From assembly GCA_022703375.1 (NCBI GenBank), contig JAKLDS010000003.1:7171-71170 (forward strand): DNA of 64,000 nucleotides, in the 5' to 3' direction. A program made the position numbers and the translations under genes. Source of the DNA: Deltaproteobacteria bacterium. GTDB taxonomy: Bacteria; Desulfobacterota; Syntrophia; Syntrophales; Smithellaceae. The notes under the pieces were generated by a model. That model was not told the origin of the DNA. It did no database searches and saw only the letters and a program-made list of their open reading frames with translations. Numbering within the stretch: the first letter of the stretch is position 1; each line of letters starts with the position of its first letter. Below are positions 2,153 through 47,711 of this stretch, piece by piece.

Positions 2153-4117
2153 TTATTTTTTCGCCGGCTGATGTGTAATGGCGGCTCGCGGTTTCCGGGC
2201 CGGTCCGGCGGCAGCCTTCTCCTGATAAAAACTCCCCGGCTCTGTTTCCCGGCGTGTACTGACAGCATGTGCATTTATGCCGCCTATTTGCTCCACCAGT
2301 TCGGCAACCACTCTCTTCATTTTATCCGCTTGTATTTTTAATGATTCGGTGGCGGAGGCTGATTGCTGTGCCGTGGCCGCATTCTGCTGAGTGACTCTGT
2401 CAATCTGGGCGACAGCCAGAGTCACTTGTCCTATTCCCTGGGCCTGTTCGTTGGAGGCCGCGGCAATTTCGTCAACTATCGTCGTGACTTTCGATGCTAT
2501 CTGAGCATTTTTTGCAAAAGCTTCCTGGGTATTTTTGGTAAATTCATCGCTGTTTTTCACTGATTCAATTGTGCTTTCGATAAGTGTACTGGTTTCGCGG
2601 GCCGCTTCGGCCGCACGAATGGCCAGATTACGAACTTCATCAGCCACCACAGCAAAGCCGGCACCGGCTTCACCGGCCCGCGCCGCCTCGACGGCGGCAT
2701 TCAAGGCCAGCAGATTGGTTTGAAAAGCAATCTCGTCTATTGTCCTGATAATCTTGCCGGTTTTTTCACTGGAAGCGGCCATTTCATTGATGGCTGTTAC
2801 CATGGCGTCCATTTGTTCCTTCACATCAACAACTATTTTGCCGAAATTGGCCATCATATCTTTCGCTTCATTGGCGCGGTTGGCATTCTGTTTGGTCATG
2901 GCGGACATGCTTTCCAGAGAGGAAGAAGTCTCCTCAATAGAGGCGGCCTGTTCCAATGATCCTTCCGCCAGCGATTGTCCCGAAGAGGACAGCTCGGCCG
3001 AAGCATGGGCAACCTGCTGGGCGCTGTCATCCAGACCGGCCGCAAAATTGCCGATGGAATTAGCTATTGTTTTGCTCATAAAAGCAGCAATAACCCAGGC
3101 GATGACAAGGCTGCCGATTAAAACAAAGAGTAAGAGAATAATCATTTGCATGGTATTGGCGTTGGCGATTGCTTTGGAATGAAGAGCGACAATGGCCCCG
3201 GCCAGTTTGCCCTTATGAAAAATCGGTAAAACTCCCTGAAAGAATCCTTCCCCATAGCTGGTTTCAGTTAAATAAACGTGCTGCTTGGCGAGATTCCACT
3301 CTCCTGTCGGAGGTTTGATTTTTTTCGTATCCAGTTTTTTGTAGTCTTTAAGTTCTCCCACGCTGAAACGCCCGTCATCAACAAAGACATTGATGGCCAC
3401 GCCGGTCAGCCTTACCATGTCGCTGACAAATAAGCTGTCCAGACGATAAATGGCTCTGACAAAGCCATACTGTTTTTCCTCGAATTTGCCCTCGATATTC
3501 TGCTGTTTATTGATAATGGGAATATTGGCAACCACGCATAAAAATCCGTCCAGGACTTGAAATTCATAATCGGATTTACCGGGAATGGCCCCCGCTTTTA
3601 AAGGCATCTTTACATCACCGGGAAGTTTATCCGTTTTTATCCAGGACTGCCAGAGATCGGCTTTCTGATTCTCCTGTTCGGCGATTATCTGATAAGCGGC
3701 ATCCGGAAACCCGAAACAATATCCCAGATGAGTCGTTTTGCCGCGGGAAATAAAGGAAAGCAAATCTCCCTGCATGTCATAGATGCTTCCCCTCCACAGC
3801 ATTTTATTATTGTATAATTTAGTGGCGATTGCTCTGTAAGAGTCACGCGCAACGGTATCGTCTTTATCTTTTTTATAGTCTTTAATAAAATCAATGTGCG
3901 AATACATGCCGACATTCATTTCATTAACCGACGCCAGCAGCCTCTGCTGACGGTTTTCCAGTTCTCCCCGCAGAATATTAATTGTTTTCTCTATTACTTT
4001 ATTGGAAGCATCGCGATTTTGTTTATTAATTAAAAAAGACACTACTAATGTGGACACCAGCATAACAACAACGACGACGGCCATGGTCATAACAATGATT
4101 TTATTCTTCAGATTCAT
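2153..4117 (-). CDS. Methyl-accepting chemotaxis protein (TM, periplasmic sensor, TM, signalling domain)
   Basis: N-terminal TM helix, a sensor region of about 300 aa and a second TM helix. Canonical MCP tip [37 protein letters not shown]. Confidence 0.9.
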
Positions 4118-12353: not shown

Positions 12354-12728
12354 AAGTCGGAATTCGTTAGTCGAATTAATGAAACTCAAATTCCAATATC
12401 AAAGATAATTGGAATTTGTAAGTTGAATTATCCTGCCGCAGGCAGGGTATCCCCGAGGCGAAGCCGAGTGGGATTTTGGGTCTAATTCCCCGCCCCTTGG
12501 GGCGAGATTTCCTTTGGATACCCAGCTGCTTGCGGCGGGGTAGTTCATTTTGTTTATGTTTAATATCTTAACGTAATAACTGCAAGGCCATTTATAATCT
12601 AATTTTTTGTGGAAAATTGCAAATTAAGGAGTAAAATAAATCTCATCTGGGGAGCAGTGAAAAGCCATGAAGGCAAAACGTTCAGCTTTTCCGGCTGCAG
12701 ATTACTGTCTGAAAATCAGGAGAATAAT

Positions 12729-15700
12729 ATGGCAACTATAAGAAAATCATCCCGGGTTGTTTTTATTGCCTTTATTTTTATTTTCAGTATTTCGGCAGCG
12801 GTATGCACAGCGGCGCCGTTGAAGCAGGATGCAGAAAATGCCCTGAAAAAAGGACTGGCGGCGATTGAACAGAAAGAATGGCCGCTGGCCATCCGTTATC
12901 TGGAGGAAGCGCGAAAAATTGAGCCCAACGATCCGGAAATTATTTTCAATCTGGGGCTCGCGGAATCTAAAATCTCGGGCCATGAAATGCGCGCCATAGC
13001 TTTCTCTAAAATGTATCTGGCGGCTGATTCCAACGCCGCCCATGCCGGTGTTGCCAAAGAGCAGATTGTCAACATGGAAGTAAAAATTGAAGTCATGATG
13101 AATAAAACTCTGTCGCAGGCGCAGTCAATGGTTCCGCAGTTTTCCGGCGACTATGAAAAGTGGAGCGCCATCTCCAAAATTGGCGTGGCTCAGGCGAAAT
13201 CCGGCGACTTAAGCGGCGCCAAACAGACAGCCCTGCAATTGCCCGGCAAGGCTGATTCGCAAATCGCCTATATCGCCAAAGCGGTTGCCGAAGCGGGCGA
13301 TATTACGCTGGGCAAGGAAATTCTCGGGCGAATTGAAGGCGCTGTCTGGAGATCACATGTCTATCAGGAAATTGCCGTCCTGCAGGCCAATGCCGGAGAC
13401 ATTGCCGGCGCTCAGTACACATTGAGTTATGCCACATACCCCGGCTACAAGCATAATGGTCTTATCGCCATTGCCAGAGCGCAGGCCAAAGCGGGCAAAG
13501 ACAGGGAGGCAAAGCAGACATTAATTTCGGCGATTGATTCCATCACGGCTAATACACAGAGTTACGATAAGGCCCATTGCTCCGAGTACCACTCCGTCGG
13601 CAAAGCGCAAAATGAAATCGGCGATTTTGAAGGAGCGCTGCAAACCGCCAATATGATTAATCAGGCGGATAAGAGCATCTTTGATTACAAGGCCAACCTT
13701 ATTACCGACATCGGACAAGCTGTGCTGAAGAGTTTCGAGGAAAAATTCAAGGCGGGCGATATCAAGGCGGCGACGAAACTGGCCATCAGAAATCCGCACC
13801 GCTATTCGAAATATTCCGCCATGCTGAAGCTGAAACATTTTGATATCTGCGCTGACCTGATTGACCTGTATGATAATTCCTATCGATGGAAATTTGAGCT
13901 TTACGGCAGGCTGATTACGGCCATGCTTGAGGATAAAAAACCCGATATGGCCAAAGAAATCGCCGTCAAAGCGAAAGAGAGCCTCAATCAGATGGACCCC
14001 TACACGATAACCGTTTTTATCGAGGCATTGCTGAAGCTCAACGATCTCGACGGCGTCCGTCGTGCCATTCCGCGCATTCCCAAAGATTCCTGGAGCAAAA
14101 ACTCCATCATGGTCAGCTATGCCAAAGCGCTGGCCAACGCGGGCGATATCGGGGCAGCCAGACAGGCCGCCGCGGAAATGAAGGACGGTTATGAAAAAAA
14201 CGGTATTCTGGAAAACATCGTCGCCTACCAGTTGAAAAATTCGGATTTGCCGGGAGCGGCGGAAACCGCAAAGATGATTTCCGATGAATATTACAAGTCC
14301 GGCGCGCTCAATAAAATAATTGATAAATATCTGGCTGACAATAATTACAACGCAGCGATGCGCACCATCAATTTGCTGCCCAATGAAGCAAAAAAGGGCG
14401 CGGCGTTGAAAACCATTGCCGGAAATCATGCCAAGGACGGTAATTTTGAAGAAGCGCTGCGGATAGCGGAGCTCATCAAAGATACCGCTGCCTTAAGTGA
14501 CGCCTATAAAGATATTGCTTATCAGCAAATGCAGGCCGGCGATTTTAAGGGCGCCCGGAAATCCTCCGAGTTGATTCCCAAAACGGACAAAAAAATTGAA
14601 TCCTATATAAATATTATCAGTTATCTTTACAGCAGCGGCTATCGCAAAGCAATCCATGATAATATCGCCACTATCCGTTCCCTGATAGAAAGCATGAGCG
14701 ATTCGCGCGAGCAGGCGCAATTTTACGGCAAGCTCGTCTATTATATTTATTATTATTCAGATACAACAGCCGATAATCAAAAATTAATGGAGCTGGCCGC
14801 GGAAAAGGCGGCAGCCGTCGCCGACGCGCAGAAAAGATCGGAATTGTATACCGGTTATGACGGCCTTTACGAAAATTACCGGAGAACAGGAAATTATACT
14901 GCTGCCCGCGAAGCGTTCTGGTCGGCCCTCGATGCCGCCAGCCTGATAAAAAGCGGCAGCTGGGAGAAAAAATACCGGTACAGTTCGCTGTCATCCTTGC
15001 AAGTGACGGCCGGAGATTTCCTGGGAGCCCGGCGAACAGCCGATGCGATGGAAGATAATGATTACCGGGAAGGCGCGCTGGCCGCGATAGCCAAGGCAAA
15101 GGTCGGTTACGGCGATTTCCGGCAGGCGGAGGAAGCAATGAACGAAATATCCTCAGCCAATAAAAAAGATGAGATTCGCCTCGAAATATTGAAAAAGCAG
15201 GCGGAAGGCGGGAAAATCGCCGACGCCAACAAAACTCTCGCGCTGATTGTCAATAAGAGCACTAAAGATAGCGCCGGCGAACATATTGCTATTGCTTATC
15301 TCAAGGCCGGCAATAAGGAAGCGGCCAAAGCCATCCTCGCGAAACTGCCGGGAGATCCCGGCTATAAAATCTTTGAAGAAATGACCAAAGCCGGTGAAAT
15401 GGCCTGGGCATATCAGGCCTTTGCCAATTTGAAAAGCGATTCATGGAAGCAATATTTTTTGAAGTACATCACGCAGGCGGAAGCAAAGAGAGGCAACATC
15501 ATTGCCGCTAAAAAGGCGGCGGAACAAATCACCGACAAATGGCATCAGACCGAAGCCTATGAAGCTGTCGCGGAGGCGGGCGATGTCAGGTGGGCGCTGG
15601 GAAAAGCCGGCGAAATTAAAGACGGTTATTACCGGGTTGCGGCCAAATCACGCATAGCCAAAATGTTATTCAAAAAAGGCAATGCTGCCAGAGCGAAGGA

Positions 15701-16778
15701 AATAGCCAATGAACTGAGAAAAATGAAAATGACCACGAGCAATCGCCTTTATTACGTTGTCAATTTACTATCGGAAATGGGTGAAACAGCAGCGGCCAGA
15801 GAACAACTCCTTCTTATCCATCCGCAGGATGACGAATTTGAATCCTGGGCGGCCTATACAATGGCCGGCTATGTGCCGGAAAATTTAAAAAAACAGGCCA
15901 TAGAAAAAATCAACGATAACTTCTGGAAATCAAAAATTCTCCACAGCCGCGCATTATACCCGCCCAAGGATAAAAAAGATAAAGAAGCGCAAATGAGAGA
16001 ATTCGCCGCAGCTATTCCGGATTTGCATCAGAGAAATCTGGTTTATCTGGAACTGGCGCGCAGGGATGCCAGGGAAGGCAACTTCAATGCGGCTCTTGAT
16101 TGGGCAGGAATGCTTGCCGACAATAATTTTAAACTGCTGGCCATTAGTGAAATAACTTACCACTCCGTCAACAGAGGCGGCCTGCATATGGTTATTCCAA
16201 AACTGAATGCGCTGCCGGACTCCCTGGGGAAAGCTTATATTATAATAGATGCGGCCAATGCGCTGGCGCAGCAGGGAAAGCCGCAGGAGGCCACAACGCT
16301 TCTGAACGTCGGCGTTTCGCTGGTTAACGCTGAGCCTGATAAATACTGGAAAGCCCGGGCGCTGATGGAAATAAGCAGAATTGCGGCGGTGGCCCGCGAT
16401 GAGAAAACTGCCGCCGACACAAAAAGCCTGGCGGAGCAGACCGCCGGCCGCCTCAAAGAAAAAGAAAAGCAGTCATGGCTGGACTTTATTGCCCAATCAG
16501 GCGCCCGGATTCAGCAGATTGCCACAGGAAAGCCGGCGGTAAAAGGGGACATCGCTCAGCAAAATAAAGACAGAGAGGCCATTAACAAAAAGCTTGAGAA
16601 ATGGAGATATCTTTTGAATTATGAACTTGCGAAGCCGATGTTTCTGGACATACAGAGTCATCTCCAGGCGGTGAACGCTAAAACAAAGCCGTGGGATGTG
16701 TTCAGCGGCTTGATTGAAATTGTGGAAACGAACGCGGAAACACTCAAAAAGATGAAAGCGCTGGAAGCGGAAAAATAG
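12729..16778 (+). CDS. Giant exported helical-repeat protein (TPR/PPR-like degenerate 31-35 aa repeats), function unknown
   Basis: ATG at 12729 lies 6 nt after AGGAG. Signal peptide MATIRKSSRVVFIAFIFIFSISAAVCTAAP. About 20 copies of a motif like IAxAQAKAGDxxGAxxTAxxI (KSGDLSGAKQTA, NAGDIAGAQYTL, NAGDIGAARQAA, QAGDFKGARKSS, TAGDFLGARRTA, GYGDFRQAEEAM and others). Confidence 0.8.
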   Translation: MATIRKSSRVVFIAFIFIFSISAAVCTAAPLKQDAENALKKGLAAIEQKEWPLAIRYLEEARKIEPNDPEIIFNLGLAESKISGHEMRAIAFSKMYLAADSNAAHAGVAKEQIVNMEVKIEVMMNKTLSQAQSMVPQFSGDYEKWSAISKIGVAQAKSGDLSGAKQTALQLPGKADSQIAYIAKAVAEAGDITLGKEILGRIEGAVWRSHVYQEIAVLQANAGDIAGAQYTLSYATYPGYKHNGLIAIARAQAKAGKDREAKQTLISAIDSITANTQSYDKAHCSEYHSVGKAQNEIGDFEGALQTANMINQADKSIFDYKANLITDIGQAVLKSFEEKFKAGDIKAATKLAIRNPHRYSKYSAMLKLKHFDICADLIDLYDNSYRWKFELYGRLITAMLEDKKPDMAKEIAVKAKESLNQMDPYTITVFIEALLKLNDLDGVRRAIPRIPKDSWSKNSIMVSYAKALANAGDIGAARQAAAEMKDGYEKNGILENIVAYQLKNSDLPGAAETAKMISDEYYKSGALNKIIDKYLADNNYNAAMRTINLLPNEAKKGAALKTIAGNHAKDGNFEEALRIAELIKDTAALSDAYKDIAYQQMQAGDFKGARKSSELIPKTDKKIESYINIISYLYSSGYRKAIHDNIATIRSLIESMSDSREQAQFYGKLVYYIYYYSDTTADNQKLMELAAEKAAAVADAQKRSELYTGYDGLYENYRRTGNYTAAREAFWSALDAASLIKSGSWEKKYRYSSLSSLQVTAGDFLGARRTADAMEDNDYREGALAAIAKAKVGYGDFRQAEEAMNEISSANKKDEIRLEILKKQAEGGKIADANKTLALIVNKSTKDSAGEHIAIAYLKAGNKEAAKAILAKLPGDPGYKIFEEMTKAGEMAWAYQAFANLKSDSWKQYFLKYITQAEAKRGNIIAAKKAAEQITDKWHQTEAYEAVAEAGDVRWALGKAGEIKDGYYRVAAKSRIAKMLFKKGNAARAKEIANELRKMKMTTSNRLYYVVNLLSEMGETAAAREQLLLIHPQDDEFESWAAYTMAGYVPENLKKQAIEKINDNFWKSKILHSRALYPPKDKKDKEAQMREFAAAIPDLHQRNLVYLELARRDAREGNFNAALDWAGMLADNNFKLLAISEITYHSVNRGGLHMVIPKLNALPDSLGKAYIIIDAANALAQQGKPQEATTLLNVGVSLVNAEPDKYWKARALMEISRIAAVARDEKTAADTKSLAEQTAGRLKEKEKQSWLDFIAQSGARIQQIATGKPAVKGDIAQQNKDREAINKKLEKWRYLLNYELAKPMFLDIQSHLQAVNAKTKPWDVFSGLIEIVETNAETLKKMKALEAEK

Positions 16779-30257: not shown

Positions 30258-31982
30258 CTATTTTTCCACCAGCGACTTTGCCAACTTTGCTGCATGCATC
30301 AGTTTGTTGATATCCTCTACCAGGAGATTGTTTTTTCTGATTTCCAGCAAATTGGTCCGGCCGGCGTTGATCAACGCTTTTTCCACCTTATTAAGGGGAA
30401 GTCCCAAGTCTTCAGAAATTCGCGCCGCAATTTTGGCGAAGGAAATCTCAAACCTCTTTCTGGCGCCGGGCTGAGTCTTTAAAATAAGGCACAGTTGCTG
30501 CAGAACATAAGGAGAGCAGTCAGTCGTCAGATGGGGATGAACATAGATATTGGCTGTTTGCAGACGGCGGGTAATTGTGGTGATCATCTTTTCCATATAA
30601 GGAGGCAGCTTTTTTAAGTTCTGCTCCAGGTGCAGTTTGGTCAGTACTGCGACTTCCGTATCTTCCAGCGCTGTTACGCTGGCGGAGCGCGGTTCATCAG
30701 TTATCAGCGCCATCTCTCCGACAATATCGCCTTCTTCCAGGGTGCTCAACACAATCCTGGCGTCGCCGGTGTTCCGGAAAACCTGTACCCGGCCTTTCAG
30801 AATCAGATAACCTTCTTCTGCGGTTTCTCCCTCCCGCATGAGAAATTCGCCCTGGGTAAACTGTTTCTTTTCCTGCCTTGACCATTTCCCCGCGATTACG
30901 TCATCCACATCGGAAATTAATTCCAGGACGCTTTGATAACGATCTTCCTTTTTCAGCTCCATTGCTTTCATGATTATCCGGCAGAGCTCTTCGGGCAGCT
31001 GTCTTGCGGGATTACGTTTTTGCGGCGGCGGGATATCCCTTTTTTCCGCTTTGGCGAGAACCTCTTCCACGGTTTTGCCTTTATAAGGCGCCTCCAGCGT
31101 GAACATGTGATGCAGCGTCGCTCCCAGGAGGAATATATCGGTCTTTTTGTCGAGAAGACTGCTGTCCCCCGTTACCTGTTCGGGAGACATATAAGCCGGA
31201 GAACCCTGAATAACCTTTTTTGCACCGGCCACTGCGGTTATGCTGCGAAACAAATCCTGATCGGGCGCCGGTATTTCCTTTTCCGGATCGCCGATGAACC
31301 GCGCCAGGCCCCAATCCATCACCAGCACCTCGCCGAACTGGCCGACAATTACATTATGCGGTTTGATATCCTGATGAATAATGTTTTTAGAATGCGCAAA
31401 TGCTATGGCATCACAGATTCTCCGGAAGATGTTGAGCAGATAGAACATGTTATATTTTTCTACATATTCCGGCGTGCCATTTTTAATTTCCGTCAGAATG
31501 GAATTGAGCGGCCGGCCGTCGGCAAGTTTCATGGTAAAATAGAGGCCGAGATCATTGGAAAGTCCCAACTCGTGCAGAGGGATGATATTCGGGTGCTCCA
31601 GCAGACCGGTTATTTTGGCTTCCCTGATGAATTCGGTAAGAGCGGTTTTGTCACTTTTCAAATTAGGCAGGACGACTTTCATGGCGGTCGTGCGCTGCAA
31701 ATCCTGATCCGTAACTTTCAGAATTGCCCCCATGCCGCCCGCAACAAGTTTTCTCTGCAATTTGTATTTGCTGCTGTTTTCTCTGCGAGTCGCATCGTCG
31801 TAAAGTTCACGCTCCAGCGGGGTGATTCCCGTGAGAGGAAAATCGAATTGCGGCAATTCCTTTTCCTGATCGAAACGGCGGGTCTGGCCATAGCTATCGT
31901 CGTTGGAATCGGCTTTGAGCTTAACGCCTTCCTCGGAGATGATAACTGTCTTTTCGCAGTTGATGGTTTTTTCTTCGCTCAT
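30258..31982 (-). CDS. Ser/Thr protein kinase fused to a cyclic-nucleotide-binding domain and a CRP-like C-terminal winged HTH
   Basis: Kinase motifs: GGMGAILKV, AMKVV, HQDIKPHNV (non-RD), MDWGLA, SPAYMSPEQ. cNMP domain: FLMREGETAEEGYLILKGRVQVF..GDIVGEMALI..PRSASV. The C-terminal segment ISFAKIAARISEDLGLPLNKVEKALINAGRTNLL resembles the CRP HTH. Confidence 0.85.
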   Translation of the reverse strand: MSEEKTINCEKTVIISEEGVKLKADSNDDSYGQTRRFDQEKELPQFDFPLTGITPLERELYDDATRRENSSKYKLQRKLVAGGMGAILKVTDQDLQRTTAMKVVLPNLKSDKTALTEFIREAKITGLLEHPNIIPLHELGLSNDLGLYFTMKLADGRPLNSILTEIKNGTPEYVEKYNMFYLLNIFRRICDAIAFAHSKNIIHQDIKPHNVIVGQFGEVLVMDWGLARFIGDPEKEIPAPDQDLFRSITAVAGAKKVIQGSPAYMSPEQVTGDSSLLDKKTDIFLLGATLHHMFTLEAPYKGKTVEEVLAKAEKRDIPPPQKRNPARQLPEELCRIIMKAMELKKEDRYQSVLELISDVDDVIAGKWSRQEKKQFTQGEFLMREGETAEEGYLILKGRVQVFRNTGDARIVLSTLEEGDIVGEMALITDEPRSASVTALEDTEVAVLTKLHLEQNLKKLPPYMEKMITTITRRLQTANIYVHPHLTTDCSPYVLQQLCLILKTQPGARKRFEISFAKIAARISEDLGLPLNKVEKALINAGRTNLLEIRKNNLLVEDINKLMHAAKLAKSLVEK

Positions 31983-32034: not shown

Positions 32035-33405
32035 TCAATCAACGTTATAAGAAGCAAGTTTGCGGCGCAGGGTGTTGAGTCCCAAACCCAAAAGCCGGGC
32101 TGCCTGCATTTTATTTTGTCCCGTCTCTTTGTAAACATTCAGAATATATTCTTTTTCCACATCGGCAAGATTTTTCCCTGCGGGACTGCTGGCTACTACG
32201 GAAGCCGCAATATCTTTTTTTCGTGTTCTCATTTCGGCAGGCAGACATTGCGGAGTAACCCTGTCGCCATGCGCCAGATTGGCCGCTGATTGGATAATAG
32301 ACTTGAGCTCGCGGATATTACCCGGATAGTTGTAGGCCATGAGTGAGCTCAGGGCTTCTTCGTCAACGTACTTGATGCCCTGAGGAAATTTCAACTCTCC
32401 CAGAAAGCAATCGATTAACAGCGGAATATCCTCCGCGTGCTCGCGCAGCGGGGGAATATGCAGCCAGGCGCCTTTAAGCCTGTAATAGAGATCTTTGCGG
32501 AACGACCCTCTGGCCATCAGCCTGTCCACATCGGCGTTGGTGGCGGCGATAAAACGGATATCAACCCGGCTGGCCGCGCTCTGTCCGAGTTTCAGAAACT
32601 CGCCTTCCTGCAGAACTCTCAGCAGTTTGCCCTGAAAATCAGCCGGCAAATCGCCGATTTCATCGAGAAATAGAGTTCCCTTGTCGGTGTGTTCCAGATA
32701 ACCCGCCCTTTCTTTTTCCGCGCCGGTGAAAGCGCCGCGGGTATGTCCGAAAAACTCGGCGTCAAAAAGATTGCCGGAGATGGAAGCCATGTTGATGGAA
32801 GTAAAGTTAAAGCGGGAGCGCGCTGAGCTCAAATGAATCGCCCGCGCGAGCAGTTCCTTGCCCGTTCCGCTTTCTCCGGTAATCAGAATCGGAACATCGC
32901 TGCCCGCGTGCAGTTCCGCTTCTTTCATAACGCGGAGCATTTTTCCGGAGCGGGTGATTATCGGTCCGAAGGCTTCTTTGTTTTGAATTGCGGGAAGTAC
33001 TCTGGTTTTTCCCACCGCGATAATTTCCAGCAGTCTCTTGCGTTCCAGTGCCCTTTTTACGGCGCCCAGCAGGTCGTCGCGCGAAATAGGCTTGGTCAGA
33101 TAGTCATAAGCGCCCTTTTTCAGGCAGGTGACCGCCACCCGCGCTTCGTTGACGGCGGTAATCATGATACATTCGGTTTCCGGACTTTTGCTTTTGATAT
33201 GTTCGAGCAGGGCTATGCCGTTCATATCCGGCATGGTTACATCAATCAGGGCGAGGTCATATGAGTTGCCTTCGTCAATCAGGGCGGCGGCGTGCAGGGA
33301 ATTACTCTCCAGCGTCAGGTTTTTCAGGCCGGCGCTGACCAGACCGCGTTTGATGCTTTCCAGAAAGTCCGGCTCATCGTCAATAGCAATAATGGAATCG
33401 TTCAT
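32035..33405 (-). CDS. Sigma-54-dependent response regulator (NtrC family: receiver, AAA+, Fis-type HTH)
   Basis: Receiver IAIDDE..LIDVTMPDMNG, Walker A GESGTGKE, GAFTGA loop, C-terminal HTH QNKMQAARLLGLGLNTLRRKL. Confidence 0.95.
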   Translation of the reverse strand: MNDSIIAIDDEPDFLESIKRGLVSAGLKNLTLESNSLHAAALIDEGNSYDLALIDVTMPDMNGIALLEHIKSKSPETECIMITAVNEARVAVTCLKKGAYDYLTKPISRDDLLGAVKRALERKRLLEIIAVGKTRVLPAIQNKEAFGPIITRSGKMLRVMKEAELHAGSDVPILITGESGTGKELLARAIHLSSARSRFNFTSINMASISGNLFDAEFFGHTRGAFTGAEKERAGYLEHTDKGTLFLDEIGDLPADFQGKLLRVLQEGEFLKLGQSAASRVDIRFIAATNADVDRLMARGSFRKDLYYRLKGAWLHIPPLREHAEDIPLLIDCFLGELKFPQGIKYVDEEALSSLMAYNYPGNIRELKSIIQSAANLAHGDRVTPQCLPAEMRTRKKDIAASVVASSPAGKNLADVEKEYILNVYKETGQNKMQAARLLGLGLNTLRRKLASYNVD

Positions 33406-33415
33406 GGTTTCTTCC

Positions 33416-36136
33416 TTATGGTTTGTCAGAGGGGGAAGATATTGTATCCGCCAGAATTATTCTGGCTTTGGTTCCCTCGCCCGACACGCTTTCTATTTCA
33501 ATGCGTCCGCCCAGGCTCTCCATGATGTTTTTCGATATATAGAGGCCGAGGCCTGTTCCCATGCCGTATGGTTTGGTGGTAAAAAAAGGATCGAAGATAT
33601 TGGTTTTCGTTGTTTCGTCCATACCGCAGCCGTTGTCTTCGATTTCGATGATTATCTTTTCCTGCCAGTCGGGAGTTGCTTTTGCCCGGATGCTGAGCGC
33701 CGATTCACGTTTATCCATTGCCTGCGTGGAATTGATTACCAGGTTGATCAGCACCTGTTCCAGCCCGTTGGCATCGGTGTAAATATCCGGCATTCCTTCT
33801 TCCAAATCCAGAGAGAACTTCCGGACTGTCTTATTGATTTGAATCTGGCAGATGGAAACTGCTTTTTCAATCAATTCTTTCGGATTTACCCAGCGCTGCT
33901 CGTTAATTTCCTTTTTGCGGGAAAATTCGCGCAGCTTGGAAACTGTGGAGTTGATTCTTTCGGCGCCGTGGTGAATATTATTCAACAACTTGAAAATATC
34001 TTCACGGAATTCATTGTAGGTCATTCCGAAAAGCTCATAATCCCTGTGCTGAAGCGCATAGTCATCAACAATCGGCATAATCTCTTTTAAATAATCAGTC
34101 AGGATGGGAATATTGAAAATAATAAAGTTGTTCGGATTATTGATCTCATGAGCTATGCCGGAAATCAGCATTCCCAGTGAAGCCAGCTTTTCGCCCTGCA
34201 CAAGCTGTCTTTCCGCAAGTTTCGCCTTGGTCAGATCGCTGATGCGGATAATCGCTTCCCCGCCACTGATGTTTTTGAGGGCTACGGGATAAATAAATAA
34301 TTTTTCGAATTTCGGAAATGGCGGGAGCCTCTGGAATTCCAGGGAAGAAGCCTCCTTCCTGGTTGTGGAGACAATGATTTTTTGCAGGGCTTCTTCGTCA
34401 TAATTAGCCCGGACAAAGGCTTCACGGCAGGAAGTTCCGATCATTGCCTGATAACTTGCTCCGCCGAAATATTTCAGGGCAGCTTCATTAATCATCAGGA
34501 TAATGAAGCTATCGCTGACCATAATCAGCGGATCGGAAATGCCGTCAAATACCGCCCGCAACATATTTCTGCTTTTTTGCACGGCCTGTTCAATCTTTTC
34601 TCTTTCCATTATTTCTTCGATCAAAACATTGTTGACGGCAGTCAGTTCCTGAGTGCGATCGGCGATGCGGTCTTCCAGCGAGGCGTGGATTGTCCGGACT
34701 TCTTCCAGAGCTTTCTTGTAGACGGTAATGTCACGGGCAACGATTACCGCGCCTACTAACTTTCTGTTATCATCATATAAAGGATTGGCAAAGGCATCCA
34801 GCCAGACATAACGGCCGGCGGAGTGATGGGCGCGGCATTCAAACCGGATGGGAGAACCCTGCATGACGTGTTTGCGCAGCAGGAGCAAAACGTTTTTCAG
34901 GTCATGATCGTAAATGATATCAAAAACCGATTTGCCGATCAGCTTTTCCGCCGGATGTCCCAGGACGTTTTTATGAGAAGGGCTTACGTACTGATAGGTG
35001 CCGTTTAAATCTATCTGAATCACCATATCGAGCATATTGTCCGTTATCCGGCGGTTGAATTTGGCAACATCGCCGATTTCCTGCTGCTTCTGTTCCATCT
35101 TCGCCAGGAGCGTATTGATATTTCCGCTCATTGACGCCAGCTCATCTTTACCCTTATATTCAATACGGTTGTTCGCCATGCCGCTCGCTATGATGGATTT
35201 TATCTGTGTCTGTATTTTTTCTACGCCGGAAAGAAAGAATCCGGCAAGAAAGAAATAGCAGAAGGAAGCCAGCAGGATGAAAGCAATAATAATTGCGAAA
35301 GAAATCTGCAGCAGTGTCGTTTCAGCTCTTTGTTTATGTGTCCGGAGAGATGATATCTCCAGCAGGAAACCCGGTTTACCGGAAATATCTTTAATGAGGC
35401 TGTAGGCGGCCAGATTACTGTCATTAACCGCAGTGATGTAAACAGGGCTGCCGGCATTCAGGGTATTAAGAATATTTTGCCGGCCGGCCGGTAATTTACT
35501 CCCCGCCAGAGGATGGAGTGAAAATTTATCATATCCGTTACCAGGCGTCTGGAAAAGGAGAGAAAGATCGAGCAGGCGTCCCAGGATTATTTTCCCGCTA
35601 ATCCTGTCCGGATTGGTTCTGGCTGTAACGGGAGAAGATGCGAAAATAAATATTTTGTTCTCAACCTGCCATAAGCCCTGATGCCGGATCGGGAAATTAT
35701 CAGCAGACAAAAACATTGTCTGCCAATCGGGAGATGCCGTGAGAAATTTTAAAAGAGATGATTTGCTTTCGCCTTTGTTATCGAAGCCGGTTGAGAAAAT
35801 AATTTTTCCGGGGCCGACGGCAAACAAAACAATATTAATCCGGCTGCGTTCCAGCAATTCTTCTGTAAATCTGATTTTTAAATAGCCGGCGGCACGTTTT
35901 TTCGGCAGAACCGTGCGGATTTCCGCATCGGCAGCGTACTGTTTCGCTATATCAGCCAGCGCCGCTGTTTCACTTGCCAGCAATGTTGATGCTGATTTTA
36001 CGCTGAGGCGCGCTGATTGAGCATCGCTTAAGTCAGCATCACTGCTTATCAGGGATGAGCAAATGTATATCAGGCAGATTGTAAGGACGACACCGGTCAG
36101 GCTGATTGACAACAACGCTTTTTTCCTGAGAGTCAT
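33416..36136 (-). CDS. Sensor histidine kinase (TM, large extracytoplasmic domain, TM, HAMP, two PAS, HisKA, HATPase)
   Basis: H-box ISGIAHEINNPNNFI, N-box LINLVINS, G-boxes DNGCGM / GTGLGL, and two PAS segments. ATG at 36136 lies 6 nt after AAGGAG. The ORF-track start at 36166 has no RBS. Confidence 0.9.
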   Translation of the reverse strand: MTLRKKALLSISLTGVVLTICLIYICSSLISSDADLSDAQSARLSVKSASTLLASETAALADIAKQYAADAEIRTVLPKKRAAGYLKIRFTEELLERSRINIVLFAVGPGKIIFSTGFDNKGESKSSLLKFLTASPDWQTMFLSADNFPIRHQGLWQVENKIFIFASSPVTARTNPDRISGKIILGRLLDLSLLFQTPGNGYDKFSLHPLAGSKLPAGRQNILNTLNAGSPVYITAVNDSNLAAYSLIKDISGKPGFLLEISSLRTHKQRAETTLLQISFAIIIAFILLASFCYFFLAGFFLSGVEKIQTQIKSIIASGMANNRIEYKGKDELASMSGNINTLLAKMEQKQQEIGDVAKFNRRITDNMLDMVIQIDLNGTYQYVSPSHKNVLGHPAEKLIGKSVFDIIYDHDLKNVLLLLRKHVMQGSPIRFECRAHHSAGRYVWLDAFANPLYDDNRKLVGAVIVARDITVYKKALEEVRTIHASLEDRIADRTQELTAVNNVLIEEIMEREKIEQAVQKSRNMLRAVFDGISDPLIMVSDSFIILMINEAALKYFGGASYQAMIGTSCREAFVRANYDEEALQKIIVSTTRKEASSLEFQRLPPFPKFEKLFIYPVALKNISGGEAIIRISDLTKAKLAERQLVQGEKLASLGMLISGIAHEINNPNNFIIFNIPILTDYLKEIMPIVDDYALQHRDYELFGMTYNEFREDIFKLLNNIHHGAERINSTVSKLREFSRKKEINEQRWVNPKELIEKAVSICQIQINKTVRKFSLDLEEGMPDIYTDANGLEQVLINLVINSTQAMDKRESALSIRAKATPDWQEKIIIEIEDNGCGMDETTKTNIFDPFFTTKPYGMGTGLGLYISKNIMESLGGRIEIESVSGEGTKARIILADTISSPSDKP

Positions 36137-36359
36137 AACTGTCTCCTTCCGCAAACGGAAAAACATTAATGGAGAAAATGAATCAGTATTACTTTTTTAT
36201 CATACATTTTATTCTAAAACATTTCACGGTAATGTTGCAATGTAATTATTGTAGAATCTTTGCATTCTGGTAAAACCACCGCAAGTATTTACTGGCGGGA
36301 AGCAGGCCAATTATGTTATATAAAATATGACAGAGCAGGAGAAAAGCAGGGAAAGGCAG

Positions 36360-41125: not shown

Positions 41126-42694
41126 ATGGATAAAGAATATATTTTAAGCATAGATAACGGAACTCAATCAGTGCGTGCGCTGATTTTTGACCGGCAGGGC
41201 AATCTGGTTTGCAAAACACGTGTTGTCCTGGAGGCTTATTATTCCAGAGAGCCGGGCTGGGCGGAGCAGGATCCTGCTTACTACTGGAAATCATTATGCC
41301 AGGCCTGCCGGCAGATCTGGAGTGAACATCCGGAGCTGAAGGAAGCAATCGCCGGTGTTACAATAACGACACAGCGCGCAACAATGATCAACGTGGATAA
41401 AAACGGCAAGCCGCTGAGACCGGCTATTGTGTGGCTGGATCAACGGCGCACCGGGGGCCTGAAGCAGGTTGGTTTCTTATGGGGTATGGCTTTTAAAATA
41501 TCCGGTATGGCCGAAACGATAGCTTATCTGCAAGCGGAAGCCGAGTCGAACTGGATAAAGCAGAATCAGCCGGAAATCTGGAGTAAAACATACAAGTATC
41601 TTTTTCTCTCCGGTTATCTGACTTATTGTCTGACTGGCCGGTTTGTTGATTCCGTGGGCTGCCAGGTTGGTTATATCCCTTTTGATTATAAGAAGAAACG
41701 CTGGGCGGCTTCCTGGAACTGGAAATGGGCTCTGACACAGATTGAACCTGAAATGCTGCCTCAGTTGATTGCACCGGCGGACATTATGGGACAGGTGACC
41801 CCTCAGGCGGCGCAGGAAACAGGCATCCCGGAAGGTCTGCCGGTAATTGCGGCGGCGGCGGACAAAGCCTGCGAGGTAATCGGAGCCGGTTGTCTCAAAC
41901 CGCATATCGGTTGCCTGAGTTACGGCACGACAGCCACGATTAATACAACGCAATACAAATACGTGGAAGCGATTCCTCTGATACCTCCTTATCCATCGGC
42001 CGTGCCTGACGCCTATGCGCTGGAAATTCAAATATACCGCGGCTACTGGATGGTAAGCTGGTTTAAGGAACAATTCGCCTATCTGGAAAAGCAAATTGCC
42101 TCTGAGCGCGGTGTGGAAACGGAAACGATAATCGAAGAGCTGCTTTATAAAGTTCCGCCGGGTTCGATGGGGTTGGTGCTGCAGCCATACTGGTCGCCGG
42201 GAATCAAGGTGCCCGGTCCGGAGGCCAAAGGCGCGGTCATCGGTTTTGGCGATGTGCATAACCGCGCTCATCTTTACCGGGCGATTCTGGAAGGTTTGGC
42301 GTACGCACTGCGTGAAGGCAAGGAGCGTGAGGAAAAAAGGAGTGGTGTGGAAATCACCGAACTTCGTGTTTCCGGCGGGGGCTCGCAAAGCAATGCGGCA
42401 ATGCAGATTACCGCCGATATTTTCGGTTTGCCCACAGCACGCCCCCATATTTACGAAACATCGGGGCTGGGAGCAGCCATTGACGCGGCGGTCGGATTAA
42501 AGCTGCACCCGGATTTTCAAACTGCAGTTAAAGAAATGACGCGGATCGGGCGTATTTTTGAACCGCATTTGCCGACACATTATATTTACGACGAGCTCTA
42601 CCGGCATGTTTACAAACAAATGTATGAACGATTAAAGCCGCTCTATGAAGCAATTCGCGAAATAACCGGTTATCCGAACCGCGCCGGTGAATAG
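41126..42694 (+). CDS. FGGY-family carbohydrate/polyol kinase
   Basis: N-terminus [17 protein letters not shown] and the C-terminal FGGY motif [10 protein letters not shown]. Starts 4 nt after the glpD-like stop. Confidence 0.85.
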
Positions 42695-42900
42695 CCGGAC
42701 AGGCAACAGAATAAAACCGGCGGGCTGTCATTATCCTGACGGGCGTCATATTTTATCCGCCATTATTATTTTTCCCGATTTTTTTCTCCGTTGACAGATG
42801 ATAATGAATAATTATTTTAAAGTTAAGGAACAAGCTAATCTGCTGCACAAAGACTCGTTTTGTTTTTTCACTTCACGTTGCTGTTAACGGCAAAAGTAAT

Positions 42901-42916
42901 TGGCACATTTATTGTA
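42901..42916 (+). promoter_or_regulatory. Sigma-54-like promoter upstream of the tip-only MCP-like gene
   Basis: TGGCAC-ATTTA-TTGTA. The -24 element is perfect. The -12 element has T in place of the conserved C. It lies 62 nt upstream of the ATG. Confidence 0.4.
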
Positions 42917-42978
42917 CATAATCATATCCGGTTATTCGTTTTTGACATTTTCCGAGTTTAAAAAAAGGAGGTGGCGTT

Positions 42979-43332
42979 ATGGTACAATTAAATTTGTCGG
43001 CTGACCGTCAGCAGAAAAGTAATATTGTCGTTAACGCCTTTGCAATTTTGAGTAAAGTTAACAATACAATGAATAACATGGCGCAGACGATGAGTGTGGC
43101 AACCGACCAGAAGGCGGAAAGCGCCGTCGCAATTGACAGGATGGCTGATCTGGCCTTTGAAAGCAGCGTCCTTGCGCTGAGAGCTTCATTAAATGAAGCC
43201 GAAGCTAACGAAATCGGTACAGGAGAAGTATTGCTTCTTGCTAAAAAAGTAAATGATATTGCCATGAAAGCTGCCGACACCACCAGAATGCTGCATGGCG
43301 TTGCTGATGCCTGCCGTCAGGCAAGGCGTTAA
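42979..43332 (+). CDS. Small soluble protein resembling only the hairpin tip of an MCP signalling domain
   Basis: AGGAGGTG RBS. 117 aa with no TM helix. LAFESSVLALRASLNEAEANEIGTGEVLLLAKKVNDIAMKAADTTR aligns by eye with the window's own MCP segment [45 protein letters not shown]. Confidence 0.7.
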   Translation: MVQLNLSADRQQKSNIVVNAFAILSKVNNTMNNMAQTMSVATDQKAESAVAIDRMADLAFESSVLALRASLNEAEANEIGTGEVLLLAKKVNDIAMKAADTTRMLHGVADACRQARR

Positions 43333-43482
43333 TATTTCGAGACATGGAATAAAAAACCTGAGAAATCAAAGGTGGTGATGCCGCTTCGCTTTCCCCGATT
43401 GATAAAGGCTGGAAAAGAATGCGGGCAAAAGGAAACGAAACGGCGTGAACAAAATTTTCCCCACAGACAAAACGGCAGCTGA

Positions 43483-43528
43483 GGAAAGGAAGCGGTCAAA
43501 CAATTAAACCGCTTCCTTTCCTTTTTTT
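43483..43528 (+). terminator. Strong rho-independent terminator
   Basis: 14-bp stem GGAAAGGAAGCGGT / ACCGCTTCCTTTCC with an 11-nt loop, followed by 7 T. Confidence 0.85.
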
Positions 43529-43660
43529 AGTGAGGCTCCAATTTCAAAAGCGCAGCGTATGGAAATTGACTGGACAAACTATCCCGCAAAGCGGGATTCG
43601 ATATAACCTGAATGAACAAGGTTTGGTATACCCGAATCATTCTCTGCAAAAGCACCCGGA

Positions 43661-44518
43661 TTATTTACGGTGCGAATCGCCCACGCCGATAAACGGCACA
43701 GCTCCGGCGCCGGTAACCTGCGGCATGATGCCATTCCATTTTTCGATAGCTCTGAGGTTTGCTTCAATTTTTCTCAGCTCAATAAGATCAGGCGAAATGT
43801 TGGCTCTCTGCAGTCGCAAGGATTCGGCTTCCGCGCGTGCCGCCGTAATCTTCTGTTCCGCCTCGATTTTTATTCTCTCCAGGTCTCTTTTAGCCTTCAG
43901 AGCCAGCTGCTCGGCTGTTTGTTTCGCCTCAATGGCCTCCATAAATACCTTGGAGAAACTGAAATTAACGATGGAAAAAGCGTCAACTGCTATGTTGGAT
44001 GAACGAAGTCTGTCCGCCAGCGAAGTTCTCATTGCTTCACTGACCAGAGGCCTCTTGGTAATAAGCTCCTCTGCCGTATATTTCGCCGTCACGGCTTTTA
44101 CCACTTCATGGATGGCCGGCTCGATGATGCGTTCACGGTAGTAGACGCCGATGGATTGATAGACGACATTGGCGCGGTCGGGAATGACATGGTAGTTCAG
44201 TACCACTTCGGAAGTTACATCCTGCAAATCAGAAGATGCGGCGGCGGCTTTGCTGGTGGCTTTATGGACCTTGACATCCATTATCATTATTTTTTGCATG
44301 ATGGGCACCCGGAAGTGCAGGCCTTCGTCAAGCACCTTGTCCTGCACGGCGCCGAAATTCAAAACAACTCCTCTTTCCCCGGCTCCAATCTGCACCCAGG
44401 GGCGGAAAAAAATCATTATCAGCAGAATCGCACCGATAATTACCCATGTTTTCATAGATCCCTTTTTCATAACGTTCTGCATGCTTTCTTTGGCCCGGTA
44501 AACATCTCTTTCATCCAT
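43661..44518 (-). CDS. Prohibitin/SPFH (band 7) family membrane protein
   Basis: N-terminal TM helix. SPFH core GERGVVLNFGAVQDKVLDEGLHFRVP and a C-terminal coiled coil. Confidence 0.85.
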   Translation of the reverse strand: MDERDVYRAKESMQNVMKKGSMKTWVIIGAILLIMIFFRPWVQIGAGERGVVLNFGAVQDKVLDEGLHFRVPIMQKIMIMDVKVHKATSKAAAASSDLQDVTSEVVLNYHVIPDRANVVYQSIGVYYRERIIEPAIHEVVKAVTAKYTAEELITKRPLVSEAMRTSLADRLRSSNIAVDAFSIVNFSFSKVFMEAIEAKQTAEQLALKAKRDLERIKIEAEQKITAARAEAESLRLQRANISPDLIELRKIEANLRAIEKWNGIMPQVTGAGAVPFIGVGDSHRK

Positions 44519-45953: not shown

Positions 45954-47129
45954 TCACATTCTCCCGATTTCCTGACCGTAAAGAAAACACTTTGTTATGC
46001 TTTCTTCGTCGGGATTCCAGAAACACTTTATTCCGTCATTGATCAATTCCCAGCCGGCTTCGGTAATCAATTTATTCATGTTGCCGACCGACTCGCCACT
46101 CCAGCCGTAGCAACCGAAGGCGGCGGCTTTCTTGTTTACGAATTGCAAACCCTTTAATTCCTCGAAAATCCCGGCCAGCGCCGTCGCTATGCCCTTGTTG
46201 ATTGTGGGAGAACCGAACAGGACAATCCGGGATTTGAAAATTTCCGTCATGATGTCGTTTTTATCGATTTTGGCGGCATTATACAGTTTGACATTGGCAG
46301 CGGCATTGACATCTTTAATCCCTTTGGCGATTGTCTCGGCCATTCTTCTGGTGCCTTCCCACATGGTATCGTAAACCAGCGTTATCTGATTTTCCTGATA
46401 GGCATTAGCCCACTGCAGATATTTTTCGACGATCTGGGTGGGATTTTGCCGCCAGATAACGCCGTGGCTGGTGGCGATAATGTCAATCGGCAGTTGCAGC
46501 GCCAGCACTTCCTTAATCTTGGCATCCACCAGTTTGCTGAATGGCGTCAGGATATTGGCATAATATTTAATACATTCACTGAATAGTTCGTCCTGTTTGA
46601 CAAGATCATTGAACATGTATTCGCTGGCGTAGTGCTGGCCAAACGCGTCATTGCTGAACAATATATTGTCGCCCGTCAGATAACAGGCCATGCTGTCCGG
46701 CCAGTGCAGCATTCTCATTTCCACAAATATCAGTTCTTTGCCGTTACCGAGCGATATCTTGTCGCCTGTTTTCACGGGTTTGAAATTCCAGTTCTGATGA
46801 TAATGACCCCGGAGCGATTTCAGGGCGTTTTGCGTGCAGTAGATGGGGGTGTCGGGAATAAACCGCATCAACTCCGGCAGAGCGCCGCTGTGGTCTATCT
46901 CCGCGTGATTGGCTACGACATAATCAATTTTTTTGAGGTCAATTTCCTTCTGCAGATTGGCAACAAACTCCCCTGCGAAAGGCAGCCAGACAGTATCTAT
47001 TAAAACGTTTTTTTCTTCCCTTAAAACGTTTTTTTCTTCCCTGATGAGGTAGGAATTATAAGTCGTTCCGCGGTTGATGGAATATTCGTCACCGTGAAAT
47101 TTTTTCAGTTCCCAGTCAATTTTACCCAA
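45954..47129 (-). CDS. Flavodiiron protein (FprA/ROO type: MBL-like diiron domain plus flavodoxin domain). Start codon unresolved.
   Basis: Diiron motif HAEIDH and a flavodoxin-like C-terminus (VLFGSPT, GCYGWSGE). The TTG at 47129 cuts off the conserved in-frame upstream peptide IIKINIKNNVYW (to 47165), which has no ATG/GTG/TTG. Confidence 0.85.
   Translation of the reverse strand: MGKIDWELKKFHGDEYSINRGTTYNSYLIREEKNVLREEKNVLIDTVWLPFAGEFVANLQKEIDLKKIDYVVANHAEIDHSGALPELMRFIPDTPIYCTQNALKSLRGHYHQNWNFKPVKTGDKISLGNGKELIFVEMRMLHWPDSMACYLTGDNILFSNDAFGQHYASEYMFNDLVKQDELFSECIKYYANILTPFSKLVDAKIKEVLALQLPIDIIATSHGVIWRQNPTQIVEKYLQWANAYQENQITLVYDTMWEGTRRMAETIAKGIKDVNAAANVKLYNAAKIDKNDIMTEIFKSRIVLFGSPTINKGIATALAGIFEELKGLQFVNKKAAAFGCYGWSGESVGNMNKLITEAGWELINDGIKCFWNPDEESITKCFLYGQEIGRM
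47000..47041. repeat. Perfect 21-bp tandem duplication inside the flavodiiron gene
   Basis: TTAAAACGTTTTTTTCTTCCC occurs twice back to back (47000..47020 and 47021..47041). It is in frame and gives REEKNVL-REEKNVL. Confidence 0.95.
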
Positions 47130-47180
47130 CCAATAAACATTGTTTTTAATGTTAATTTTTATGATACTGTCCCCCGTTTT

Positions 47181-47711
47181 TTATTTTAAATATTTCTTTT
47201 CCAGGCGATTGAGCAGCCTGTGCAGTTTCTCGTGAGTTCCTTTTCCCATCACCTTCTCTTCAAATTCTTCAAAGAGAGCCGCTAATTCCTGCTGTTTTAC
47301 CTCTGGTATTTTCCGGTCTGCCAGGGGAAACAGTATCTTGTTTTCTTTTTCGATATGCCGGCGCAATAAATCAATGTAATTTCCTGCGGCAGAGCATAAT
47401 TCATCTTTTTTAATTGAATTGTCAAGTAATGCGGCATTCATTTGGGAGAGATATTTTCTTCCCTCGGCATGTTCAAGCAGCAGTTGTCCGATATGTCCGG
47501 TTTCTTTCGGAATGCCCGCCATTTCCATAGCGGGGAACAATAAACCTTCTTCTTTCCCGTGGTGGCATTTGTCGGCAAATAATTGAAAAAAACCGGCCAG
47601 GTCAATAAAATCCCGGGTGCTTATGTCGGTTTTGAGCATCATCTCCAGAATATTCAGGCCGTGCAAAATGCCATTATGCTCATTTATTAAATCTTCACTG
47701 GCATGATTCAT
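47181..47711 (-). CDS. Hemerythrin-like (HHE cation-binding) domain protein
   Basis: His/Glu ligand pattern: EHNGILHGL, CHHGKEEGLLFP, LLEHAEG, RRHIEKENKILFP. Confidence 0.8.
   Translation of the reverse strand: MNHASEDLINEHNGILHGLNILEMMLKTDISTRDFIDLAGFFQLFADKCHHGKEEGLLFPAMEMAGIPKETGHIGQLLLEHAEGRKYLSQMNAALLDNSIKKDELCSAAGNYIDLLRRHIEKENKILFPLADRKIPEVKQQELAALFEEFEEKVMGKGTHEKLHRLLNRLEKKYLK

Follow-up and report, generated by a model that had tools for sequence, protein, structure and literature searches.

The recognised heptad classes of MCP signalling domains span 24H to 64H, and the smallest of them, 24H, has about 168 residues (PMC6943060). Receptor residues within 4 Å of CheA-P5 are F373, Q374, I377, L378, L380, N381, A383, V384, E385 and R388, and those within the same distance of CheW are Q374, I377, L380, N381, V384, E385, A387, R388 and R404 (PMC13098124, Table 1). 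Phenylalanine 396 stacks across the C/C' dimer interface of the receptor (PMC6681711). Thermotoga maritima Tm14 (PDB entries 3G67 and 3G6B, 213 residues) is cytoplasmic, sensor-less and made up only of MCP-type helices, which form a complete, symmetric hairpin dimer whose tip is canonical. The receptor tip fragments present in CheA/CheW complexes (PDB entries 3UR1 and 4JPB, 85–90 residues) are soluble and bind both CheW and CheA-P5, which makes them a precedent for the docking of an isolated tip; they are laboratory truncations with a native tip and form dimeric four-helix bundles. Searches of the literature found no natural MCP derivative described as consisting of the tip only or of three helices.

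The protein analysed here, of 117 amino acids, is encoded by a small gene located at 42979..43332 on the plus strand (stop codon included) of the window, which is the whole 64-kb stretch of DNA that was analysed. The gene was defined by its open reading frame, by matches to MCPsignal and Tsr, by its omega values and by AF2 models. With the MCP signalling domain (Tsr residues 322–419, PDB entry 1QU7) the protein shares homology over the N-helix, U-turn and C-helix, an Ala/Leu core, an E-x-G motif and a hydrophobic stripe. It differs from an MCP in its size and lacks a sensor, a TM segment, a HAMP domain and methylation helices; its arms are unequal, and the fold predicted for it is a monomeric bundle of three helices. 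Replacements affect F396, N381, Q374 and R404 (and R388 in the clade of the window protein), one residue is inserted, and the Pfam score is below the gathering cutoff. Like Tm14, it is cytoplasmic, sensor-less and composed only of MCP-type helices, but it has about half the length of Tm14, and the similarity between the two is weak (E = 0.4–0.6, with a Foldseek TM score of only 0.36). The tip fragments of 3UR1 and 4JPB are similar to it in size and solubility; here, in contrast, the gene is natural, the surface of its product is remodelled and a fold-back helix is predicted in addition. Three-helix adaptor domains (BAG, GAT, syntaxin Habc and designed proteins) resemble it in predicted topology and in size (Foldseek TM scores of 0.55–0.65), without sequence kinship or a significant E-value, so that what they share is no more than a simple fold.

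Kinship with the receptor tip

The Pfam profile MCPsignal (PF00015) matches residues 25–108 with an E-value of 6e-4 and a score of 20.1 bits, below the gathering cutoff of 34.6 bits, so that the profile check suggested in the earlier note yields a match by E-value and falls short by score. In a phmmer search of the PDB, residues 9–107 align with residues 322–419 of Tsr (1QU7, E = 8e-5), and the NCBIfam MCP equivalogs give a weak match, at Tsr-like positions 322–419. When the family profile is run against 1.84 billion proteins, MCPs are matched from E ~1e-6 upward, and all matches beyond three family clusters are full-length MCPs or MCP fragments, matched at the tip. Given the Tsr match and these family-profile matches, the homology to the MCP tip first seen by eye is real, despite the missed Pfam cutoff. 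The MCP segment used in that comparison by eye belongs to the resident MCP (654 amino acids, 2156–4117, minus strand; the genome thus has at least one full-length MCP), and a pairwise BLASTP alignment of the two proteins is not significant when taken alone (E = 0.16). The alignment with MCPs extends from Tsr residue 322, below methylation helix 1, to about residue 428, before methylation helix 2, so that the protein has no adaptation sites and the methylation helices are indeed absent. The family is descended from the stretch of an MCP that begins just below methylation helix 1, passes through the U-turn and takes in about 35 residues of the return helix.

The five family members were aligned with the 58 nearest MCPs; Tsr numbers are obtained by adding 313 to window-protein positions up to 84 and 312 after the insertion. 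Residues A59, F60, L65, A66, L67, A69, A76, E78, G80, A88, A95, A98 and A99 are kept in all five members and belong mostly to the Ala/Leu core and the turn. The near-invariant tip motif of MCPs (...E-A-A-R-A-G-E-x-G-x-G-F-A-V-V-A-x-E-V-R) is not intact. Nine residues that are invariant in all 58 MCPs are replaced. Four of the replacements are the same in all five members: Q374 by E61, T375 by S62, A386 by E73 and E402 by K90. A383 is replaced by S70, N381 by Arg, Lys or Ser at position 68, G390 by Asn, Ser or Arg at position 77 and R404 by Asn, His or Ser at position 92, while F396 has become Glu, Arg or Lys at position 83, a charged residue in every member. R388 is replaced by Glu, Glu and Ala in the clade of the window protein and is still arginine in the two distant members. 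Family-fixed replacements (E61, S62, S70, E73, L87, K90, I94 and K97) are found at nearly all surface positions that are invariant in MCPs, and in all five members one residue, at position 85, is inserted directly after the turn. The substitutions R to E, G to N and F to E and the extra residue, which had been read from the single sequence, are all seen in the alignment.

The N-helix carries a hydrophobic stripe of F60, V/L64, L67 and L/V71, equivalent to F373, I377, L380 and V384 of Tsr. None of the five members has a replacement at F60, L67 or the neighbouring L65, and the changes at positions 64 and 71 are conservative. In receptors, the N-helix stripe docks with CheW and CheA-P5 and also makes trimer contacts. 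Among the residues in contact with CheA-P5 and CheW, the hydrophobic ones are thus kept or conservatively replaced and the polar ones are changed, with the exception of R388 in the two distant members. Retention of the stripe and turn across members that are only 41% identical implies constraint on that face of the protein. The family is clearly derived from MCPs and probably remodelled in structure, lacking several of the features that define the MCP family.

Predicted fold and candidate function

The U-turn is formed by residues E78-I79-G80-T81 and is preceded by about 79 residues and followed by about 37, instead of the roughly 55 residues per arm estimated before. For the window protein, AF2 (run as a monomer with the five-sequence alignment) predicts helices at residues 8–41, 47–79 and 82–116, with a pLDDT of 89.3 and a pTM of 0.80. 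In this model, three helices of about 34 residues each are connected by a loop (residues 42–46) and by the U-turn (residues 80–81). The most distant member, also modelled as a monomer, is predicted to have the same topology, with helices at residues 4–43, 48–79 and 82–120 (pLDDT 84.3, pTM 0.72). Within the family, no stretch varies more than the break at residues 42–46, where one member has a glycine; the MCP equivalents of S45, T48 and K50, conserved at 93–95%, are not kept in the family. The long amino-terminal arm is thus predicted to break at residues 42–46 and to fold back, giving a self-contained antiparallel three-helix bundle and not a dimeric four-helix tip. As modelled, the protein seems to be a stand-alone three-helix bundle, at variance with the two-arm antiparallel hairpin of the earlier note. 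A Foldseek search of the PDB found no specific structural relative: its matches were antiparallel bundles of three helices of a generic kind (designed proteins, BAG, GAT, syntaxin Habc and Smac), the best E-value was 0.067, and MCP structures scored poorly.

In the mechanism we propose, the protein would be unable to signal. It would act as a monovalent, non-signalling binder whose single docking stripe, similar to that of a receptor, fits a groove of the CheW or P5 type or binds receptor tips. Its own promoter is probably conditional, and on expression the protein would cap or titrate chemosensory complexes or change their tuning. In a heptad projection, the stripe is at b and f positions and would remain exposed if the first helix takes the place of the C' partner helix beside the N-helix. 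Judging from the residues retained, the protein may bind or cap chemosensory partners in a monovalent manner, and we tentatively prefer this reading. A fuller version appears rather unlikely: the family would consist of single-chain pseudo-tips, in which the fold-back helix stands in for the second subunit of the receptor dimer and one docking stripe is shown on a monomeric three-helix scaffold. Such a protein, endogenous and expressed under certain conditions, would cap arrays in syntrophic Desulfobacterota or compete for their components, and so re-tune or dismantle them. With the stripe kept, the protein may still be the decoy or adaptor first imagined; that idea is weakened by the replacement of Q374, N381, R388 and R404, by the charged residue at the F396 position and by the lack of che linkage. 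Genes for CheA, CheW or flagella were found neither in the 64-kb window nor around the other family members (loci L001, L084 and L086), and the neighbours of the small gene differ among its three contexts (the window, L084 and L086).

Almost as likely as the binder or cap is an unrelated function, in which an MCP fragment provided the raw material for a scaffold that now has another partner or role, away from chemosensory arrays. The family-fixed residues at nearly all MCP-invariant surface positions would agree with such a change of role, as would the three contexts without linked che genes, the generic three-helix fold, which resembles that of the BAG, GAT and syntaxin Habc adaptor domains, and the occurrence of the family in few lineages only. 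Against it, the stripe used for CheW, P5 and trimer contacts and the E-x-G motif are kept in five of five members at an overall identity of 41%, although burial of the stripe in a new core could also explain its retention.

Improbable, by comparison with the capping role, is a homodimer in which two antiparallel hairpins of the canonical kind build a miniature four-helix tip, i.e. a tip-only mini-receptor that inserts into arrays and represents a new ultra-short class. Homology is indeed found on both sides of the U-turn, and AF2 was run on monomers only, so that a dimeric extended state cannot appear in the models. However, the symmetric hairpin of a recognised heptad class is not found: one arm, with about 79 residues, is more than twice as long as the other, with about 37, and both AF2 targets fold back at the variable loop into three helices. 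The charged residue at the F396 position in all five members and the loss of the trimer residue N381 point, together with the unequal arms and the predicted fold-back, away from a miniature canonical receptor tip, and the one-residue insertion shifts the register of the C-helix. At 117 residues, the protein would also be well below the roughly 168 residues of class 24H; classes 24H to 64H are all much longer, as the earlier note had supposed (PMC6943060).

The locus and its expression signals

Upstream, the small gene is separated from an FGGY-family kinase gene (41126–42694) by a spacer of 284 nt (42695–42978, GC 0.37) that starts after the stop codon of the kinase gene. Downstream, two SPFH/Band-7 genes and an NfeD gene are located on the minus strand, convergent with it. 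The Shine-Dalgarno sequence AGGAGGTG (42968..42975, plus strand) was read directly, 3 nt before the ATG. A Rho-independent terminator (43481..43530, plus strand, with stem to tail at about 43481–43524) has a 16-bp stem, an 11-nt loop and a U7 tail, with a folding energy of -26.6 kcal/mol, and is kept in the orthologues. The highest Kyte-Doolittle mean over 19 residues is 1.13, and the protein has no TM segment. The reading frame, ribosome-binding site, AT-rich spacer, strong terminator and soluble product described beforehand are thus all present, and a stand-alone soluble MCP-tip derivative with its own expression signals is supported. The small gene and its spacer have a GC content of 0.36–0.46, compared with 0.50–0.58 in the flanking metabolic genes.

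Two candidate promoters lie in the spacer. The sequence TGGCACATTTATTGTA at 42901..42916 (plus strand), with 62 nt between it and the ATG, contains the sigma-54-like -24/-12 motif TGGCAC-N5-TTGTA and is a putative promoter or operator. The sigma-54 consensus has GG at -24 and GC at -12 with a 10-nt gap (TGGCAC-N5-TTGCW); here, the GG and the spacing fit, and the -12 element is GT (TTGT) and not GC (TTGC). A sigma-70-like promoter candidate, TTGACA-16-TATTTT, is found 110 nt upstream of this motif (42791..42818, plus strand) and agrees with the consensus at 10 of 12 positions. Most of the spacer is 58–66% identical among the three close orthologues, near the level of neutral divergence (pS ~0.37–0.44), and the spacer segments flanking the sigma-54-like block are 58–68% identical. 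Three blocks stand out: 42896–42916, around the sigma-54-like motif, is identical to the two orthologues at 21 of 21 and 19 of 21 positions, the block at 42791–42860 with the sigma-70-like candidate is 81–87% identical, and the ribosome-binding block at 42965–42981 is 94% identical. The conserved promoter islands, ribosome-binding site and terminator, all recognised by their sequence, indicate that expression is probably regulated and independent.

Transcription from an RpoN promoter at 42901–42916, controlled by an EBP, is doubtful. The GG-N10-G spacing, the orientation and the distance of 62 nt from the ATG are appropriate, and the island is conserved well above its flanks (about 60%). An NtrC-type EBP gene is located at 32038–33405, 9.5 kb from the small gene, so the organism uses sigma-54-dependent regulation. 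On the other side are the TTGT at -12 and the frequency of the motif: it has a single match in the 64-kb window where 0.46 would be expected (2.3 with one mismatch), and the motif pointed out in the earlier note, while present at the right distance, is by itself not beyond chance. At the distant loci, the GG is missing from L084 and the TTGC from L086. A resemblance between TTGGCACATTTATTGT of the window and GTCGCATATTTATTGT of L084 was considered as a shared cis-element and rejected as being at chance level (211 of 500 shuffles reach it). No upstream repeat that could serve as an EBP site was found, and the conserved sigma-70-like candidate is an alternative promoter. The EBP response regulator adjoins a CHASE4/PAS histidine kinase (both within 32038–36166, minus strand).

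Beyond the stop codon, the DNA is 39–46% identical to that of the orthologues at first and 75–77% identical in a stem-loop region (43369..43460, plus strand). An RNAalifold consensus predicts this conserved stem-loop, at about 43369–43460, followed by the terminator, with two compensatory pairs in three sequences, and folding of the single sequence of the 3' region gives a z-score of -2.46. A search of 42600–43700 against Rfam gave only sub-threshold noise over the terminator hairpin. The basic 34-aa ORF proposed for this region exists (43378–43482), its start being in the 5' arm of the stem-loop. As a conserved coding sequence it was rejected: its frame is 34 amino acids long in the window and 25 and 11 in the orthologues, and only MPLRF is common to them. 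The region 43369–43530 looks like a structured 3' UTR and might perhaps be a stabiliser or a 3'-UTR-derived sRNA.

Other features were observed around the gene. O2/NO detoxification genes occur 2.6–5 kb from it in two contexts, as FprA and hemerythrin in the window (45957–47711, minus strand) and as an FprA-like gene, rubredoxin and rubrerythrin in L084 (5085–7146, plus strand). With an identity of only 38% between the two FprA proteins, this neighbourhood may be a coincidence; the genes are also differently arranged, and a link with FprA or oxygen-stress genes was considered and rejected. The FprA-type flavodiiron protein of the window (45957–47129, minus strand) contains, at codons ~29–42, a perfect tandem duplication of seven residues (REEKNVL REEKNVL); the L084 homologue has no such repeat. 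The window also encodes a Ser/Thr protein kinase fused to a cyclic-nucleotide-binding domain (30261–31982, minus strand), which is unusual for a bacterial Hanks-type kinase, and a 1389-aa ORF (12609–16775, plus strand) with a weak amino-terminal TPR match and otherwise no Pfam annotation. In L086, a 65-aa ORF (355–568, plus strand) for which Pfam gives no credible match is located directly upstream of the gene for the distant member P0004 and shares the ribosome-binding context AGGAGGTGGC with the small gene of the window. The PADLOC defence models returned nothing meaningful.

Coding status, distribution and meaning

Two orthologues of 127 amino acids, 79–81% identical to the window protein, are present in metagenome assemblies, on contigs that keep the order of DAO-type dehydrogenase, FGGY kinase, small ORF and an opposing gene. 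Searched exhaustively with HMMER, a set of 1.84 billion representative proteins yielded two more, distant members, P0003 (122 amino acids, E = 9e-24) and P0004 (137 amino acids, E = 8e-22). Both are 41–42% identical to the window protein and collinear with it from end to end, and their genes, each with a good Shine-Dalgarno sequence of its own, are found in unrelated genomic contexts. With the syntenic pair and the two distant members in hand, the absence of orthologues that the earlier note had allowed for did not occur. By the Nei-Gojobori method, omega of the small gene is 0.19–0.25, below 1 in three pairwise comparisons, with an excess of synonymous changes (Fisher p of 1e-6 to 2e-8). Its dS of 0.50–0.58 matches that of its neighbours (adjacent FGGY gene 0.52, DAO gene 0.67) and is somewhat low in the carboxy-terminal half (0.31–0.39). 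From these substitution patterns, the small gene is protein-coding and under purifying selection; it is a genuine, monocistronic gene of a Smithellaceae-like (Syntrophales) genome.

A decaying MCP pseudogene fragment or a spurious ORF, with conservation stemming from a non-coding or antisense function, might account for the Pfam score under the threshold, the rarity of the gene, its GC of 0.40–0.46 (below that of the flanks) and the low dS of the carboxy-terminal half, but is essentially excluded by the synteny, by omega values significantly below 1, by the distant members, by a frame that is intact with its own ribosome-binding site in five sequences down to 41% identity and by the fate of the 91-aa antisense ORF (43008–43283), which was rejected because stop codons interrupt its frame in the orthologues; Rfam gives no match either.

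The family is very small. Including the window copy, it comprises five sequences of 117–137 amino acids among 5.8 billion clustered proteins, in which a profile search finds the same four clusters only. Scans with the family patterns revealed no relative in 185,579 GTDB species genomes, nor in JGI metagenome contigs and IMG/VR viral contigs. The FGGY neighbour has its counterparts, at 79–85% identity, in Smithella, Smithellaceae and 'Deltaproteobacteria' MAGs, which places the window in a Syntrophales-like member of the Desulfobacterota; in the closest Smithellaceae reference genomes, the small gene is missing and unrelated genes are found downstream of FGGY. The sole tblastn match there (L009, E = 1.7) was rejected, as it lies inside a dTDP-glucose dehydratase gene. 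Absence from the closest reference genomes and the low GC content are compatible with lineage-specific acquisition or insertion.

With five members known among billions of proteins, and not one from a reference genome, the family is so rare that its general biological importance is limited. If binding to CheW, CheA-P5 or receptor tips is true, the protein would be a naturally encoded modulator of arrays made from a receptor fragment, similar to a microProtein and of a kind not described for chemotaxis, and it would provide a compact tool for probing the interfaces of the core complex. If it does not bind them, the family would illustrate how a dimeric four-helix hairpin may be recycled into a monomeric three-helix domain.
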